From Candidatus Woesebacteria bacterium (GTDB lineage: Bacteria; Patescibacteriota; Microgenomatia; UBA1400; MFAQ01): DNA of 64,000 bases. Below the pieces are notes generated by a model that did no database searches, was not told the origin of the DNA, and saw only the letters and a program-made list of their open reading frames with translations. The translations under genes and the position numbers were made by a program. Positions 28,484-34,210 of this stretch are shown here, piece after piece; position 1 is the stretch's first letter; every line of letters begins with the position of its first letter. Where the stretch lies: positions 829,881 through 893,880 of the forward strand of contig DAOORK010000001.1 in NCBI GenBank assembly GCA_035389185.1. Direction: 5' to 3'.

Positions 28484-30022
28484 TTATCGTGAGATTCGAG
28501 GATATAGATATTCTGAAAATACAAGCAGTAGTGAGATAAACAGGTAGGCAAGGAAGAAGTAACTAGGTTGATTAATGAGGCAGTACGCAGATGTTATACA
28601 GGCAACAATTAACGGAATTGATCTGGTAGTCAGGGACAGCATTCGAAGCCTTTCTAGAGTATTCGGTGAGCTTATTTTTGCGGTGTAGAAGCACGATTTC
28701 AAAATGATTTCGCTTTGAATAATAACATTTTTCCACTGTCTTCCTGTACAAGTAATATTTACAAAATATCTATTTAGAAGGCTTTCTTTTAGATTGAAGT
28801 AGCCTTTTATATCCGATATTACTGTACACCAAGGATCGTTTAATCGATCAGGATCATAAAGATTGATAACTGATAGTGGAAGCGTTTGGAACCTTTTGTT
28901 TTTGAGAAAGGGAAAGAATAGAACGGTAAAAAAGCGAATGATATTTGAGATACCAATTTTTGCTCCAAATAAGGAAAGCACTAGATGGAGAGGCAAGCCG
29001 ATTGCCAAAAGAAGACATAGGATGTTTTGGGTACTGGGAATAGTTTTTGGAGACGTGCTTTGGAATTCAAAAACGGGAGGAGTGGGAGATACCGGAGGGA
29101 TCGGAACAAACGGAGTAGGCACGGTAATGATTTCCGGTGGTTCTGGTGATATTCCAGTCGGTGGAGTTATGGGGGTGATGATGGCCCCTGATGTAGGAGT
29201 GGTGATCCCATAGGCAAGATAAAACTCAGGAAAGACGGTGGAGTTTCCGCCAGCGTCAGTGGCAGAAATATAAACGGTATAGACAATACCTTTAATCAGA
29301 TTGTAAAAGCGATGTTGCCAGGTGCCTGTTGGGTAGTTTCCCTGCCACGTTTGATTTTGACAATTAGGTATATTTTGTGGACACATCAAGATAATTTGCA
29401 TATTTGCGAATGGCTCGACAGTTCCAGAAAGAAGAGGATTGGCATTTGAAACAGAGATGTTTCGTTGATTGTTCCCTGGGATCGATGAAGGTATCGAAGT
29501 ATCCCAGTTGAGGGTTTGATTGTCAACTTTTGATAGCTTAATGAAGGGTGCGGTTGCGTCTACATAAAAAGTAATCGTATCTGAAGAAGCATAGCTGCCA
29601 TAAGTATTGTAGGCAACAACTTGCCAGGTGTGATAACCATCCGATAAGTTTGATGAAAGATAGAAAGAAAAAGTATTGTTTTGTCGATAAACAGAGTATG
29701 AATAGTAGGTTTGAGAGGTAATACTGTCACTTATGGAATAAGCAATTATATTTCCGTCCAAGTAAACATCGTAGTGGTGAAGAGGGGTAACAGGTATGGG
29801 GTTGGGGCGTTGCCAAACCATAGGCTCTCTTGGGTTTGAAGTAACGGAGTTATTGAGAGGTGCGGTGATGACGGGAGGATTAAACGTCTGAGAAATGACT
29901 TCTGCACTAACTGCGGCAGACCCAGTGGAGTATTCCGTATCGGCTATAACAAGGCTAGGCTGAACTCCAAAGAGAACGATACAAACAAACGATGATATGA
30001 CAAGACTCTTTATGACATTCAC
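28484..30022 (-). CDS. Secreted/membrane protein with Ig/FN3-like domains, a Pro-rich linker and a C-terminal polytopic membrane domain
   Basis: 512-aa ORF. It has a signal peptide, beta-rich repeats, a PEPPEIITVPTPFVPIPPVSPTPPV linker and then several TM helices. It is the last gene of the operon 34210->28484, joined by a GTGA start/stop overlap. Confidence 0.7.
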   Translation of the reverse strand: MNVIKSLVISSFVCIVLFGVQPSLVIADTEYSTGSAAVSAEVISQTFNPPVITAPLNNSVTSNPREPMVWQRPNPIPVTPLHHYDVYLDGNIIAYSISDSITSQTYYSYSVYRQNNTFSFYLSSNLSDGYHTWQVVAYNTYGSYASSDTITFYVDATAPFIKLSKVDNQTLNWDTSIPSSIPGNNQRNISVSNANPLLSGTVEPFANMQIILMCPQNIPNCQNQTWQGNYPTGTWQHRFYNLIKGIVYTVYISATDAGGNSTVFPEFYLAYGITTPTSGAIITPITPPTGISPEPPEIITVPTPFVPIPPVSPTPPVFEFQSTSPKTIPSTQNILCLLLAIGLPLHLVLSLFGAKIGISNIIRFFTVLFFPFLKNKRFQTLPLSVINLYDPDRLNDPWCTVISDIKGYFNLKESLLNRYFVNITCTGRQWKNVIIQSEIILKSCFYTAKISSPNTLERLRMLSLTTRSIPLIVACITSAYCLINQPSYFFLAYLFISLLLVFSEYLYPRISR

Positions 30023-30987
30023 TTTTTTTCGTTATTTTGCAACTCTTGTTTAAGCGCTAGAACTTCTTTTTCGAGATCCTCTTGATGCTTTTTGCTGCGT
30101 TTGTTGAGGAAAATGATAATCATGAGAACGGAGATCAGGGCAATGAGAGAATAGACAACAAGCCTTACGGGGAAGAACCAGAAAAAGATTGTTGCCGTTA
30201 TAGGGGTTTCGGCTGAGCCGAAAACTAAGTTCAGATTAGCTTTATATCGTCCCCAGCCCCACTCTTGATTCCATTTGGCAGAAAAGTCTCTTGATGTTTC
30301 AGGAAAGATATAACCGGCATCAATGGGGATATCGGCGACTTTGGCATTGAATGGATCATAGATGGTGATTGTTCCTTTGGGATTGATATGAACATCAGAA
30401 AGACTCTCGATAGTGCCTTTGAATTCAACCGGACCTTTTTCGGTGAACTTGGATGGTGCAAACCTGGTGAGGGTCGCCTTTTCGGTAACTGGTCCGTTGA
30501 CGGTAACATAAATCAGAGTGCCAACGCGCTGAGTAATTACGTTTCCGGTTTGTCTTAGGTCTCCTGGCTTATTTTCGGTATTTGGAGTATAGGTGACCAT
30601 GGCGTAATGACCACCTGAGAGTGCTGTCATGGGGATTTTGATGGAGACATTGATGATTTGTGTGCCCCCAGAATCGACAGGAATTTCCTTGGGAGCAGAA
30701 ATCCAGTTTGCAAGTGACCATCGGTTGTTAATTTTGGTGGTGATAGGAATGGGAGTGCCTATGTTGTCGATAACGATGAAATCTTCGACGGAAACAGTAA
30801 AAGATTGAGTTTCAGAAGAACCGTTTCGGACTTTTAGAGTGGCGGTGAGGGTTTGTCCGGGATCACCCTTTAGTTCTACTTTGGGAGGGATAGCCGTTAT
30901 GGACATTTGAGAGTGAACCGGGGAGGCCAGAAAAATAAAAGATAGACTGGTGATTAAGCTGGAGAGGAGAATGTTTGTCTTTTTCAT
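30019..30987 (-). CDS. Cell-surface protein with a signal peptide and a C-terminal TM anchor (DUF916-like architecture)
   Basis: Has a signal peptide, a beta-rich ectodomain, then FFWFFPVRLVVYSLIALISVLMIIIF plus a basic tail. It is paralogous to CDS 32439..33425. Confidence 0.7.
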   Translation of the reverse strand: MKKTNILLSSLITSLSFIFLASPVHSQMSITAIPPKVELKGDPGQTLTATLKVRNGSSETQSFTVSVEDFIVIDNIGTPIPITTKINNRWSLANWISAPKEIPVDSGGTQIINVSIKIPMTALSGGHYAMVTYTPNTENKPGDLRQTGNVITQRVGTLIYVTVNGPVTEKATLTRFAPSKFTEKGPVEFKGTIESLSDVHINPKGTITIYDPFNAKVADIPIDAGYIFPETSRDFSAKWNQEWGWGRYKANLNLVFGSAETPITATIFFWFFPVRLVVYSLIALISVLMIIIFLNKRSKKHQEDLEKEVLALKQELQNNEKK

Positions 30988-33425: not shown

Positions 33426-34210
33426 TAGAAGGAAGGAATAGCAATAAATTGTATTGAGTTTTGGTAAGTGCCGGCGGCTTGTGATCCGGAGACATTGACT
33501 TTGTAAGTGACTGTGGCCGCCGATGAGGTGGCTACATTACCTCTGGACATGATGGTTACCGGATTGTCGACATTTTGTACCGGGAAGGGACGAAAATAGG
33601 TGGGGTTAAGGAAGTCGCTGGTGTCAACATCTGTTCCTTGGATGTTAAAACCGAATCCAAAACGGGTGTCATCGGTCCAGAGATTGGCGTCGGTAGGTAG
33701 ACATGGTGTGGCTAGGTCACATGAGGTGTCGGGAATAGTGGTGGTGCCATCGCTCATTCTTAGAGGGTGATCTTCAACCGTTTTGACTGTATAACCAAAA
33801 GCACTGCCTGTTGTTACAGTGAGGGTGTTTGTCAGTAAACTTGGTGTTCCGGGGATCAGACTACCGAAGTCGATGTCCAGATCACTAATTTTGAAAGAAA
33901 AAGGGATCAGGGAGTTGATATATTGAAAGCCTGCCAAAATGACGTACCCGTTGGAGTTGAACTGTCCTTGGAAAGTTTGACCAACGGTGTCGGTTAGTTT
34001 GAAAGAGGGGGATGTTTTTTCTCCGCCGGTAATATTGATAGTGCTCATCTGGACTTCAAAGGTAGGTGATTTAAGATTATCGGCGAAACAAAAAGAGGGG
34101 AGGAAAAAGGTAAAAAATACGGCAAAGAATAACGATAATATAAGATATTTGGATGACGATTTGAGGTCTAATTGAAGTTTTTGGGTCATTTTTAATTCTA
34201 TTCTGTGCAT
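33425..34210 (-). CDS. Secreted protein with a conserved C-terminal domain (paralog of the 31009..32442 C-domain)
   Basis: Has a signal peptide (LILSLFFAVFFTFFLPSFCFA). The C-terminus (...LWTDDTRFGFGFNIQG...ATVTYKVNVSGSQAAGTYQNSIQFIAIPSF) aligns with the 477-aa protein. The start may be the internal MTQK. Confidence 0.65.
   Translation of the reverse strand: MHRIELKMTQKLQLDLKSSSKYLILSLFFAVFFTFFLPSFCFADNLKSPTFEVQMSTINITGGEKTSPSFKLTDTVGQTFQGQFNSNGYVILAGFQYINSLIPFSFKISDLDIDFGSLIPGTPSLLTNTLTVTTGSAFGYTVKTVEDHPLRMSDGTTTIPDTSCDLATPCLPTDANLWTDDTRFGFGFNIQGTDVDTSDFLNPTYFRPFPVQNVDNPVTIMSRGNVATSSAATVTYKVNVSGSQAAGTYQNSIQFIAIPSF

Follow-up and report, generated by a model that had tools for sequence, protein, structure and literature searches.

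Two groups of described surface systems are closest to the locus reported here. In Candidatus Mycosynbacter amalyticus, the proteins of the Pam pilus form filaments in cryo-EM (Troman et al., bioRxiv 10.64898/2026.03.03.709456). [quoted passage not shown] The Pam system is restricted to CPR, its cluster contains neither an usher nor a sortase, and PamT has a mass of 25.6 kDa. The second group is the WxL/Csc clusters of Lactobacillales and Listeria, in which a small and a large WxL protein are encoded with WxLIP, an anchored protein of DUF916-DUF3324-TM architecture (Hassan et al. 2023, PMC10599100; PDB 9i1y, 9i25). For WxLIP, the prediction is that a disordered loop turns into a strand and closes a gap in the WxL sandwich. 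The current view of WxL proteins is that they form a complex on peptidoglycan and do not polymerise.

The locus lies in a 64,000-nucleotide stretch (the window) of the genome of an ultrasmall bacterium, a Candidatus Woesebacteria (Microgenomatia, CPR). Because the Pam HMM matches, although below the cut-offs, coincide with the Pam architecture, we read it as a compact Pam-type donor-strand-exchange pilus operon, probably producing a thin surface filament, with a probability of about 75%. Observed are the genes themselves, their paralogy and synteny, the folds, the motifs and the matches to protein families; strand exchange, the order of subunits and the function are inferred. Comparison with the Ca. 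Mycosynbacter amalyticus system was made through NCBIfam models and its published description.

Five ORFs occupy positions 28484-34210 on the minus strand of the window, and the alternation of secreted and TM-anchored products claimed in the preliminary description is real, with the same coordinates and lengths. They encode a secreted, PamT-like small pilin, which is a candidate tip or minor subunit (g1; 34210-33425, 261 aa), a membrane-anchored chaperone-like protein (g2; 33425-32439, 328 aa), the putative major pilin (g3; 32442-31009, 468 aa, or 477 aa with the upstream ATG), a second anchored chaperone-like protein, which is a probable WxLIP/DUF916 homologue (g4; 30987-30019, 322 aa), and a candidate pilus terminator and membrane anchor with a PamR-like role (g5; 30022-28484, 512 aa). 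A signal-peptide-like segment is found by hydrophobicity at the N-terminus of all five. The TAATG (g1/g2) and GTGA (g4/g5) overlaps described earlier are present, and the ATGA overlap of g2/g3 holds if g3 starts at the ATG of the 477-aa form. It is lost with the Met nine codons downstream (window 32415), which leaves a 23-nt gap after g2; this 468-aa start agrees with the deposited annotation and with most homologues (462-480 aa). The spacing between g3 and g4 is 21 nt. Since promoter and terminator scans of the locus gave no signal above chance, the term operon rests on spacing and synteny. All five products are annotated as hypothetical by NCBI, because the HMM scores fall far under the curated cut-offs.

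Absence of the operon pattern from related genomes had been named as an objection to the preliminary description. The g1-g5 order is kept in at least 27 of 46 species-level loci, and the remaining loci are mostly on truncated contigs. The related loci belong to Collierbacteria, Woesebacteria or Microgenomates; as in the Pam system, the genome and the related loci are all CPR, and proteins identical to those of the locus are on deposit under Candidatus Woesebacteria.

The secreted proteins g1 and g3 are paralogues, 35% identical across 153 residues of their C-terminal parts (E 4e-15; 99.9% in profile comparison). The common C-terminal domain noticed earlier is therefore genuine, but its length is about 150 aa instead of the proposed ~95 aa, and the motif W..D..FG(F/Y)...AAG(T/S)Y(Q/E)N is present and conserved as described. 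In g1, a signal peptide and a conserved N-terminal part of ~65 aa are followed by the C-terminal pilin domain of ~150 aa (residues 112-261; window 33428-33877, minus strand). Neither g1, ending in ...IPSF, nor g3, ending in ...ATATF, has a C-terminal anchor. The g1 protein matches the NCBIfam equivalog model CPR_pilus_PamT (NF058579) with an E-value of 1.9e-13 and 50.4 bits, below the curated cut-off of 240 bits, its residues 23-151 aligning with model positions 4-132. It also matches CPR_Pam_pilin_C (NF058581) with E 6.7e-6 and 26.3 bits over nearly the whole 148-position model, below the 55-bit cut-off of this domain. Within the g1 family, the PamT model matches 15 of 18 members and CPR_Pam_pilin_C 14 of 18 (best 3e-9). 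By sequence, g1 is clearly homologous to PamT, at a score far under the equivalog level, and its 261-aa precursor is near PamT in size.

The g3 protein likewise matches the whole 148-position CPR_Pam_pilin_C model (E 9e-6, 25.8 bits, below the 55-bit cut-off), as do 45 of 46 relatives (best 4.8e-7), so that a small PamT-like pilin and a two-domain pilin share a C-terminal domain, as in Pam. Its AlphaFold model (pLDDT 89) is all-beta, with domains at residues 33-257 and 291-466 joined by a linker at 269-290; fold searches with this pilin returned generic matches only. Conservation peaks at residues 281-290 in the linker and at 452-463 in the C-terminal strand (window 31027-31062, minus strand), in line with the conservation reported for Pam. 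Mature g3 contains six Cys, and paired cysteines are also a feature of PamA and PamB.

The anchored proteins g2 and g4 are also paralogous, being 23% identical along their whole length (E 5e-12; 99.6% and E 7e-25 in profile comparison). The ITPP/IPPK start and the FFxFP preceding the TM segment, both pointed out earlier, are present and conserved. In g2, the signal peptide precedes two beta-sandwich domains, and the protein ends in a TM segment (285-321) with a short basic tail. For g4, hydrophobicity places the C-terminal TM segment at 263-299, and the protein has a PapD-type fold and, besides the TM helix, a conserved helix on the cytoplasmic side (274-321). The g4 model also contains a disordered flexible loop, whose flanking strands are the most conserved segments. 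Two anchored chaperone-like proteins with C-terminal TM helices and a PapD fold are what the Pam system would lead one to expect; a search of the g4 family against NCBIfam, which may hold no Pam chaperone model, matched none.

The only recurrent Pfam match of the g4 family is WxLIP_PGBD (DUF916, PF06030). In the DUF916 scan suggested earlier, this model matches 40 of 45 g4 relatives (best E 2.7e-5), always below the gathering score; it also matches 2 of 20 g2 relatives, again below this score. In a PDB search with the g4-family profile, the best sequence match was WxLIP1 of E. faecium (E 6e-4). We built a WxLIP profile from ten plasmid loci of Firmicutes; hhalign against it gave a probability of 94-96% for the g4 family (E 1e-7 to 5e-9), and against the DUF916 part 95.9% for domain 1 of g4 (E 5e-9) and 71% for domain 1 of g2 (E 4e-5), with reversed or shuffled controls at 0.2% or less. 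The second domain of the anchored proteins has no sequence match to DUF3324 (3% by hhalign), a FimC/PapD-type chaperone profile reached 2.9% at most against the anchored family, and Pfam PapD_N did not match the g4 family. No fimbrial chaperone comes as close to the anchored proteins as WxLIP does, in sequence profile or in fold. That these proteins are remote WxLIP homologues, mainly in the DUF916 domain and not members by the curated threshold, is fairly well supported.

The Ig-like protein g5, for which a C-terminal membrane domain had been proposed, bears out this assignment: it matches Pfam Big_13 above the cut-off (E 1.8e-7) and has TM segments at 331-358 and 485-508 by hydrophobicity. 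Its signal peptide is followed by a conserved N-terminal strand, two Ig-like domains, a Pro-rich stalk, the first TM segment, a segment of ~125 aa and the second TM segment. An anchored Ig-like protein with an N-terminal strand recalls PamR, but g5 is larger (56 kDa versus 32.8 kDa) and has a second membrane segment.

A short motif, V[ST]A[TSE][VI] (also V-[ST]-A-x-[VI]), marks both the g3 linker and the mature N-terminus of g5. In g3, the candidate donor strand VRVTATIDPS (residues 281-290 of the 468-aa form; window 31546-31575, minus strand) shares the highest conservation in the family with the C-terminal strand, and in the monomer model of the mature protein no block has a lower pLDDT. Of 46 g3 homologues, 45 contain the motif a single time, at the linker. 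The g5 copy, VSAEV (residues 38-42; window 29897-29911, minus strand), directly follows the signal peptide; 12 of 17 orthologues have one copy of the motif, in each case at the N-terminus of the mature protein, and the other five have (S/T)ATATVP or SATVLAT at the same position. In g2, a putative complementing (G1-like) strand, IVTATIGS (residues 152-159; window 32949-32972, minus strand), carries VTATI like the g3 linker and corresponds to the last strand of domain 1 in the hhalign alignment to g4. The clade consensus of this segment is x-S-A-T-I-G-x-N, and the motif itself appears there in 3 of 20 g2 orthologues. Five of 45 g4 homologues contain the motif, but there it lies close to the TM helix, at about residue 275, and nowhere else. 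It is absent from g1 and from 5044 aa of the neighbouring giant Ser/Thr/Ala-rich proteins. Such a distribution fits strand exchange.

The motifs and their conservation suggest the following assembly scheme. All five products would be exported by Sec, and g2 and g4 would remain in the cytoplasmic membrane through their C-terminal helices and act as chaperones. The flexible loop and the strand ending domain 1 of g2/g4 may fill the open groove in a newly exported pilin's C-terminal domain, i.e. donor-strand complementation. Because g1 lacks the donor motif, we tentatively place it at the distal end of the filament, but a strongly conserved strand of its own, ILAGFQY, precedes its C-terminal domain and makes a tip-only role uncertain. 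Polymerisation would proceed by donor-strand exchange, in which the g3 linker VRVTATIDPS takes the place of the chaperone strand in the preceding subunit's groove. With its N-terminal strand, which carries the same motif, g5 could then occupy the last groove and stop growth, and the TM region of g5 would tether the filament. Neither an usher nor a sortase would be required. Presumably the filament serves contact with host cells, as proposed for Ca. Mycosynbacter.

The locus also departs from Pam in several respects. It has five genes instead of seven, with one major pilin and without a separate PamB or PamE, and its genes strictly follow the order small pilin, chaperone, large pilin, chaperone and anchor.

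The preliminary description had likened the locus to csc/WxL clusters, and this parallel stands for the anchored partner, given its sub-threshold DUF916 likeness, but fails for the secreted proteins. The WxL model (PF13731) matched neither g1, g3 nor any of 46 g3 relatives, even at E 10. The two secreted proteins contain no W-x-L motif, with a single Trp per C-terminal domain, and reached 2% at most against small and large WxL profiles by hhalign, for which positive controls gave 97% and 99.9%; we therefore discard their identification as WxL proteins. The overall layout is nonetheless shared: the anchored protein has a signal peptide, two Ig-like domains and a TM segment, the small and large secreted proteins have a common C-terminal domain, and the order small secreted, anchored, large secreted is that of small WxL, WxLIP and large WxL in 4 of 10 Firmicute loci (L049, L051, L053, L056). 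The flexible loop of the g4 model matches the WxLIP loop predicted to complete the partner's sandwich. Differences from WxL/Csc besides the secreted proteins are the second anchored domain without a DUF3324 match, two anchored paralogues instead of one, the lack of the LPxTG protein that WxL clusters often include, and a CPR rather than Bacillota host.

These likenesses raise the question of whether the locus could encode a WxL/Csc-type surface complex without a filament, in which each anchored protein is a permanent holder, the role suggested for WxLIP, and keeps g1 or g3 on the surface by inserting a strand into its C-terminal domain. The closeness of the anchored proteins to WxLIP rather than to fimbrial chaperones, the gene order of the Firmicute clusters and the disordered loop of g4, which parallels the loop-to-strand filling predicted for WxLIP, would all suit such a complex, and polymerisation of g3 is itself a proposal. 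We consider it unlikely, however, because the matches of the secreted proteins are to Pam pilin models instead of WxL, W-x-L motifs and an LPxTG partner are missing, and one-to-one holding does not need a donor-like motif in the linker of g3 itself and at the N-terminus of g5. Moreover, the homologous Pam proteins form filaments in cryo-EM (bioRxiv 10.64898/2026.03.03.709456). It is more improbable still that the products are unrelated secreted proteins of beta-sandwich type, either adhesins or envelope proteins, with no more than shared domains, the anchored ones being adhesins or spacers without strand complementation. Ig-like folds are generic, as were the fold-search results for the pilin, and the matches to Pam and DUF916 models are sub-threshold; against this stand a gene order kept strictly for all five genes in at least 27 species, motifs that recur in a coordinated way in three of the proteins, matches that are specific for PamT and the Pam pilin, with E down to 1e-13, and the chaperone-type fold of g4 with conservation peaks in the strands beside the flexible loop.

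A classical chaperone-usher pilus, a family named beforehand as the alternative assignment, or a sortase-assembled Gram-positive pilus is least probable of all, with hardly any likelihood in our view. The proposed Pam mechanism does resemble that of the chaperone-usher pili (Fim, Pap, Csu, CFA/I) in the inferred donor-strand complementation and exchange and in having a small tip-type and a polymerising subunit. However, no usher was detected among the neighbouring proteins scanned, the low FimC/PapD-type score and the missing PapD_N match leave no sequence-profile similarity, and the chaperone-like proteins sit in the membrane instead of being soluble. Nor is the candidate donor strand an N-terminal extension; it links two domains inside the protein. 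To our knowledge, CPR cells have no outer membrane, which also counts against an usher-dependent pilus. A sortase is disfavoured since none of the 117 window ORFs of at least 100 aa has a C-terminal LPxTG; the lack of usher and sortase signals is itself a Pam-like trait.

The Pam-type pilus reading and the WxL comparison converge mechanistically, in that an anchored protein lends a beta-strand to an incomplete beta-sandwich. The Pam preprint does not mention WxL, and chaperones or donor strands do not appear in the WxL papers compared; neither side draws the connection between Pam and WxLIP. We advance as a tentative idea, to which we give somewhat less than even odds, that the Pam pili of CPR bacteria and the WxL/Csc clusters of lactobacilli, enterococci and Listeria branched from a single ancient monoderm system, in which a DUF916-type anchored chaperone lends a strand to secreted subunits with an incomplete C-terminal beta-sandwich. 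If so, the WxL clusters, long without an explanation, would work by donor-strand complementation and may even polymerise, and the 'PapD-like' Pam chaperones would descend from the WxLIP lineage, not from Gram-negative fimbrial chaperones. Common descent of the secreted subunits is not supported by their sequences, as the likeness between Pam-type and WxL subunits is confined to 20 residues at the last strand (E 0.02-0.04).

Conservation extends beyond the five genes, since proteins on both sides are syntenic. A 242-aa polytopic membrane protein (34323-35051, minus strand), a conserved component by which the locus differs from Pam, is encoded directly upstream of g1 and recurs there in 36 of 46 related loci; it matched no Pfam or NCBIfam family, and may be the first gene of the unit. 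Also unlike Pam, ATP synthase genes are not nearby, as no ATP synthase subunit was detected among the neighbouring proteins scanned within the window. Downstream lies g6 (18622-27873, minus strand), a membrane-anchored fibre-like giant of 3083 aa with Phage_int_SAM_1 / XerC-XerD N-terminal-type domains, AgmC_N, a TM segment at ~275-300 and a Bdello_MAT_N fibre domain (E 1.3e-6). In 31 of 46 related loci, g5 is followed by the N-terminus of this giant protein. This syntenic neighbour, for which membership of the pilus is not implied, is the counterpart of the 'tail fibre-like protein' that the Pam preprint describes beside the pam genes.

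The five minus-strand genes most probably form a compact Pam-type pilus operon (probability about 0.75), related to the donor-strand-exchange pilus system of Candidatus Mycosynbacter amalyticus. The small secreted protein g1 (34210-33425, 261 aa) would be a PamT-like distal subunit, the large secreted protein g3 (32442-31009, 477 aa) the polymerising pilin, the anchored proteins g2 (33425-32439, 328 aa) and g4 (30987-30019, 322 aa) the chaperones, and the Ig-like g5 (30022-28484, 512 aa, GTG start) the terminator or anchor. These ORFs agree exactly with those of the preliminary description. 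Hydrophobicity scans place an N-terminal signal-like segment in all five proteins, a single C-terminal transmembrane (TM) segment in each of g2 and g4, and two in g5 (331-358 and 485-508). Of the start/stop overlaps proposed earlier, TAATG at g1/g2 and GTGA at g4/g5 stand, but ATGA at g2/g3 exists only with the 477-aa start of g3; the deposited protein and most homologues (462-480 aa) align to the Met nine codons downstream. The gap between g3 and g4 is 21 nt. Promoter and terminator consensus scans remained at chance level, and the Rfam scan returned tRNAs only. In the databases, the region is represented by the identical proteins PLI45_04825, _04830 and _04840 of a Candidatus Woesebacteria MAG, titled 'hypothetical protein'.

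Between the secreted proteins g1 and g3, 153 C-terminal residues align at 35% identity (E 4e-15); the common C-terminal domain ascribed to them is real, but is nearer 150 residues than the suggested ~95 aa. The anchored proteins g2 and g4 are 23% identical over their full length (E 5e-12), and as family profiles they match at 99.6% (E 7e-25).

Scanning one genome per GTDB species yielded 46 related loci, of which the informatively titled ones belong to Collierbacteria, Woesebacteria or Microgenomates. The recurrent order obtained by tblastn is a 242-aa membrane protein, g1, g2, g3, g4, g5 and the N-terminus of a 3083-aa protein. The genes g1-g5 are complete and ordered in 27 of the 46 loci, and the whole seven-gene string is found in 20; incomplete loci are mostly interrupted by contig ends, and out-of-order genes occur in none. 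Therefore, absence of the pattern from related genomes, which had been named as grounds for giving up the operon, is ruled out. Several of the MAGs (L007, L009, L013, L019, L038 and others) are titled 'uncultured Pseudomonadales', 'Spirochaetia bacterium' or 'Deltaproteobacteria bacterium'; such non-CPR titles on MAGs carrying a CPR-type operon look like mislabelling or mis-binning. The 242-aa polytopic membrane protein (34323-35051, minus strand), with a soluble tail of ~95 aa, lies upstream of g1 in 36 of the 46 loci and matches no Pfam or NCBIfam family; possibly it belongs to the pilus unit as a part that has escaped recognition.

Pfam is nearly silent on the five proteins, with Big_13 above threshold in g5 and a weak WxLIP_PGBD (DUF916) match in g4. 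The Pam comparison rests on the models in NCBIfam release 20 and on the preprint description of the M. amalyticus proteins. CPR_pilus_PamT matches g1 with an E-value of 1.9e-13, below cut-off, and the whole 148-position CPR_Pam_pilin_C model matches both g1 (E 7e-6) and g3 (E 9e-6), again below cut-off. The latter match recurs in 45 of 46 g3 relatives; among g1 relatives, PamT is matched by 15 of 18 and the pilin C domain by 14 of 18. Because all Pam matches lie under the NCBI cut-offs, the genes are still annotated as hypothetical. No Pam chaperone model in NCBIfam was matched by the g4 family, and neither g1 and g3 nor the family profiles A2, A3 and A4 had a relevant match among PDB sequences. 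In the g1-profile homologue search, the best 120 matches listed are all Microgenomatia proteins.

The Pam models originate in a 2026 preprint, in which two M. amalyticus filaments were solved by cryo-EM (10.64898/2026.03.03.709456). In the pilins described there, the N-terminal domain is a beta-sandwich, the linker contributes a strand to the following subunit, and the Ig-like C-terminal domain is truncated; PamT is a single-domain tip pilin. The system has two FimC/PapD-like chaperones in which, unusually, the C-terminal TM helix is retained; its anchored terminator, PamR, is RbmA-like and has an additional N-terminal strand, and there is no usher (10.64898/2026.03.03.709456). The present locus differs in that g5 is larger than PamR, and in that the ATP synthase genes of the published Pam neighbourhood are not found among the scanned neighbours of g1-g5. 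Both differences, like the sub-threshold HMM scores, weaken the Pam reading.

The main alternative is that the cluster encodes a WxL-like surface complex that does not polymerise, which we regard as rather improbable. The preliminary description had proposed such a WxL/DUF916 logic; its anchored partner and cluster logic hold, but the WxL domain does not, and the published Pam family had been missed. In gene order, small WxL, WxLIP and large WxL in 4 of 10 Firmicute loci mirror g1, g2 and g3. The secreted proteins are nonetheless not WxL proteins: Pfam WxL was matched by 0 of 46 sequences and the W-x-L motif is absent. That the C-terminal domain of the pilins is homologous to the WxL domain was also rejected as unsupported, hhalign giving 2% or less (positive controls, 97% and 99.9%) and Pfam no WxL match. 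Only the last strand of ~20 residues was aligned (E 0.02-0.04), and the same ~20 residues were chosen from three queries against the WxL proteins of the Firmicute loci L048-L056. In this strand (g1 ~240-261; g3 ~447-468 in 468-aa numbering), the pattern AAG(T/S)Y(Q/E)N.I.(F/Y).A is similar to the strand that ends WxL domains, e.g. AQGYTTTLTWNL. Classical chaperone-usher and sortase pili were rejected as well, since whole ectodomains or single domains of the g2 and g4 families reached 2.9% or less against a profile of nine fimbrial chaperones, and no ORF of the window carries an LPxTG signal. The candidate disulfide pairs (three in g3, one in g1), together with this lack of LPxTG, fit Pam pilins and argue against sortase pili.

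The anchored proteins were compared by hhalign with a WxLIP profile from ten Firmicute plasmid clusters, collected by tblastn with a WxLIP1 fragment. The g4 ectodomain family scored 94.2% (E 1.1e-7; 209 columns) and the merged g2+g4 families 95.9% (E 5e-9). The signal resides in domain 1, where the DUF916 part was matched by g4 at 95.9% (E 5e-9) and by g2 at 71% (E 4e-5); g4 domain 2 reached 3% (E 0.015) against the DUF3324 part. Controls stayed at 0.2% or less for g4 or g2+g4 against reversed or column-shuffled WxLIP, and at 1.1% or less for g5 or the g3 N-terminal domain. Among 45 g4 relatives, 40 match Pfam WxLIP_PGBD and none PapD_N, and the best PDB sequence match of the g4 profile is WxLIP1. 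The hhalign, Pfam and PDB matches indicate, at the level of sequence, that the anchored proteins g2 and g4 are remote homologues of WxLIP; with Gram-negative chaperones they have the fold alone in common. The predicted WxLIP loop-strand that completes the WxL sandwich would amount to donor-strand complementation under another name. WxL is unmentioned in the Pam preprint (10.64898/2026.03.03.709456), the one WxL paper checked for these terms mentions neither chaperones nor PapD, and a full-text literature search for 'WxL' with 'donor strand' gave a single match, an unrelated 2013 review.

[quoted passage not shown] Confidence within the mature monomer model is lowest in the linker, in keeping with a strand that would pair in trans. 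For g4, the model (pLDDT 82) shows a pair of beta-sandwich domains followed by a long C-terminal helix, and a low-confidence loop (pLDDT <50 at 144-151) precedes the last strand of domain 1. The g4 conservation peaks are the loop-flanking strands GGHYAM and QRVGTLIY, GWGR, and FxFP before the TM helix.

In 45 of 46 pilins the pentapeptide V[ST]A[TSE][VI] has a single occurrence, which lies in the linker. Of 17 g5 orthologues, 12 likewise contain it exactly once, directly behind the signal peptide; the remaining five carry (S/T)ATATVP or SATVLAT at that position. It is found in 3 of 20 g2 orthologues, among them g2 of the window (IVTATIGS), in a segment whose counterpart in the alignment is the final strand of g4 domain 1 (consensus of the clade, xSATIGxN), and in 5 of 45 g4 homologues, only at ~residue 275 near the TM helix. 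The motif is absent from the g1 family and from 5044 residues of two neighbouring Ser/Thr/Ala/Gly-rich giants. Together with the conservation pattern, this distribution appears to match the prediction for a donor-strand system, in which the strands of the chaperone, the pilin (its donor strand) and the terminator would compete for one groove and the tip subunit would lack a donor strand.

The Pam family is already known, having been published in 2026 and flagged in Microgenomatia; the present analysis adds explicit candidates for the strands and the homology of WxLIP with Pam. Among CPR-specific filaments, the Pam pilus is the first to have its structure solved, and it is considered to act in host-cell contact. 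The minimal five-gene version is widespread and strictly syntenic in Microgenomatia, and current curated models miss the locus, all of whose genes are deposited as 'hypothetical protein'. To our knowledge, the class Microgenomatia is without a cultured representative. The locus offers testable candidates for three strands, namely the donor, the complementing one of the chaperone and the terminating one. Through their detectable homology to WxLIP, the anchored chaperones link the CPR pilus to a surface-protein system common in Gram-positive gut and food bacteria, whose mechanism is debated; if this homology extends to the whole system, the pilus would be tied to a surface system that is widespread in Gram-positives and whose mechanism is unsettled.

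The g4 cytoplasmic tail (30019-30168, residues ~274-322) is a conserved charged helix with invariant H301, L305, E306, E308 and L312, and is much longer than the post-TM tails of g2 and of the WxLIP sequences used here; it may contact a cytoplasmic partner or serve in oligomerisation.

The 3083-aa protein downstream of g5 (18622-27873, minus strand) begins with tyrosine-recombinase-type SAM-like domains without the catalytic domain, seen by Pfam as one stretch (16-96) and by NCBIfam XerC/XerD as two (best 145-237). A TM segment (~275-300) and a fibre-like Gly-rich extracellular part (Bdello_MAT_N, AgmC_N) follow; it is odd for a surface fibre to carry a DNA-binding-type module at its cytoplasmic end. 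Between g5 and this gene, a spacer of 610 nt (27874-28483) contains three exact ATATT(A/T)CCGCA copies on the minus strand (28167, 28241, 28294) and a related one at 28258, with exact copies nowhere else in the window. These copies may serve the giant gene as operators, although their count alone is not above chance. A second giant of 1959 aa (12574-18453, minus strand) has a Gly_rich_2 domain; after it comes a type IV pilin-like protein of 225 aa (11868-12545, minus strand) that bears a prepilin N-methylation motif. Several distinct surface-filament systems lie side by side in this region.

The plus-strand GC skew of the window (1-64000) is very strong, +0.23 overall and 0.18-0.41 per gene independent of gene strand, and has a similar magnitude in the related loci (0.17-0.46); the pilus operon is on the C-rich strand in 8 of 8 related loci checked. 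Competence genes surround the operon (35311-37819 and 44551-48003), namely ComEA, ComEC, DprA and a ComM-like Mg-chelatase, with ComEC split into two ORFs, the Competence domain at 35919-37034 and the metallo-beta-lactamase part at 37043-37819.
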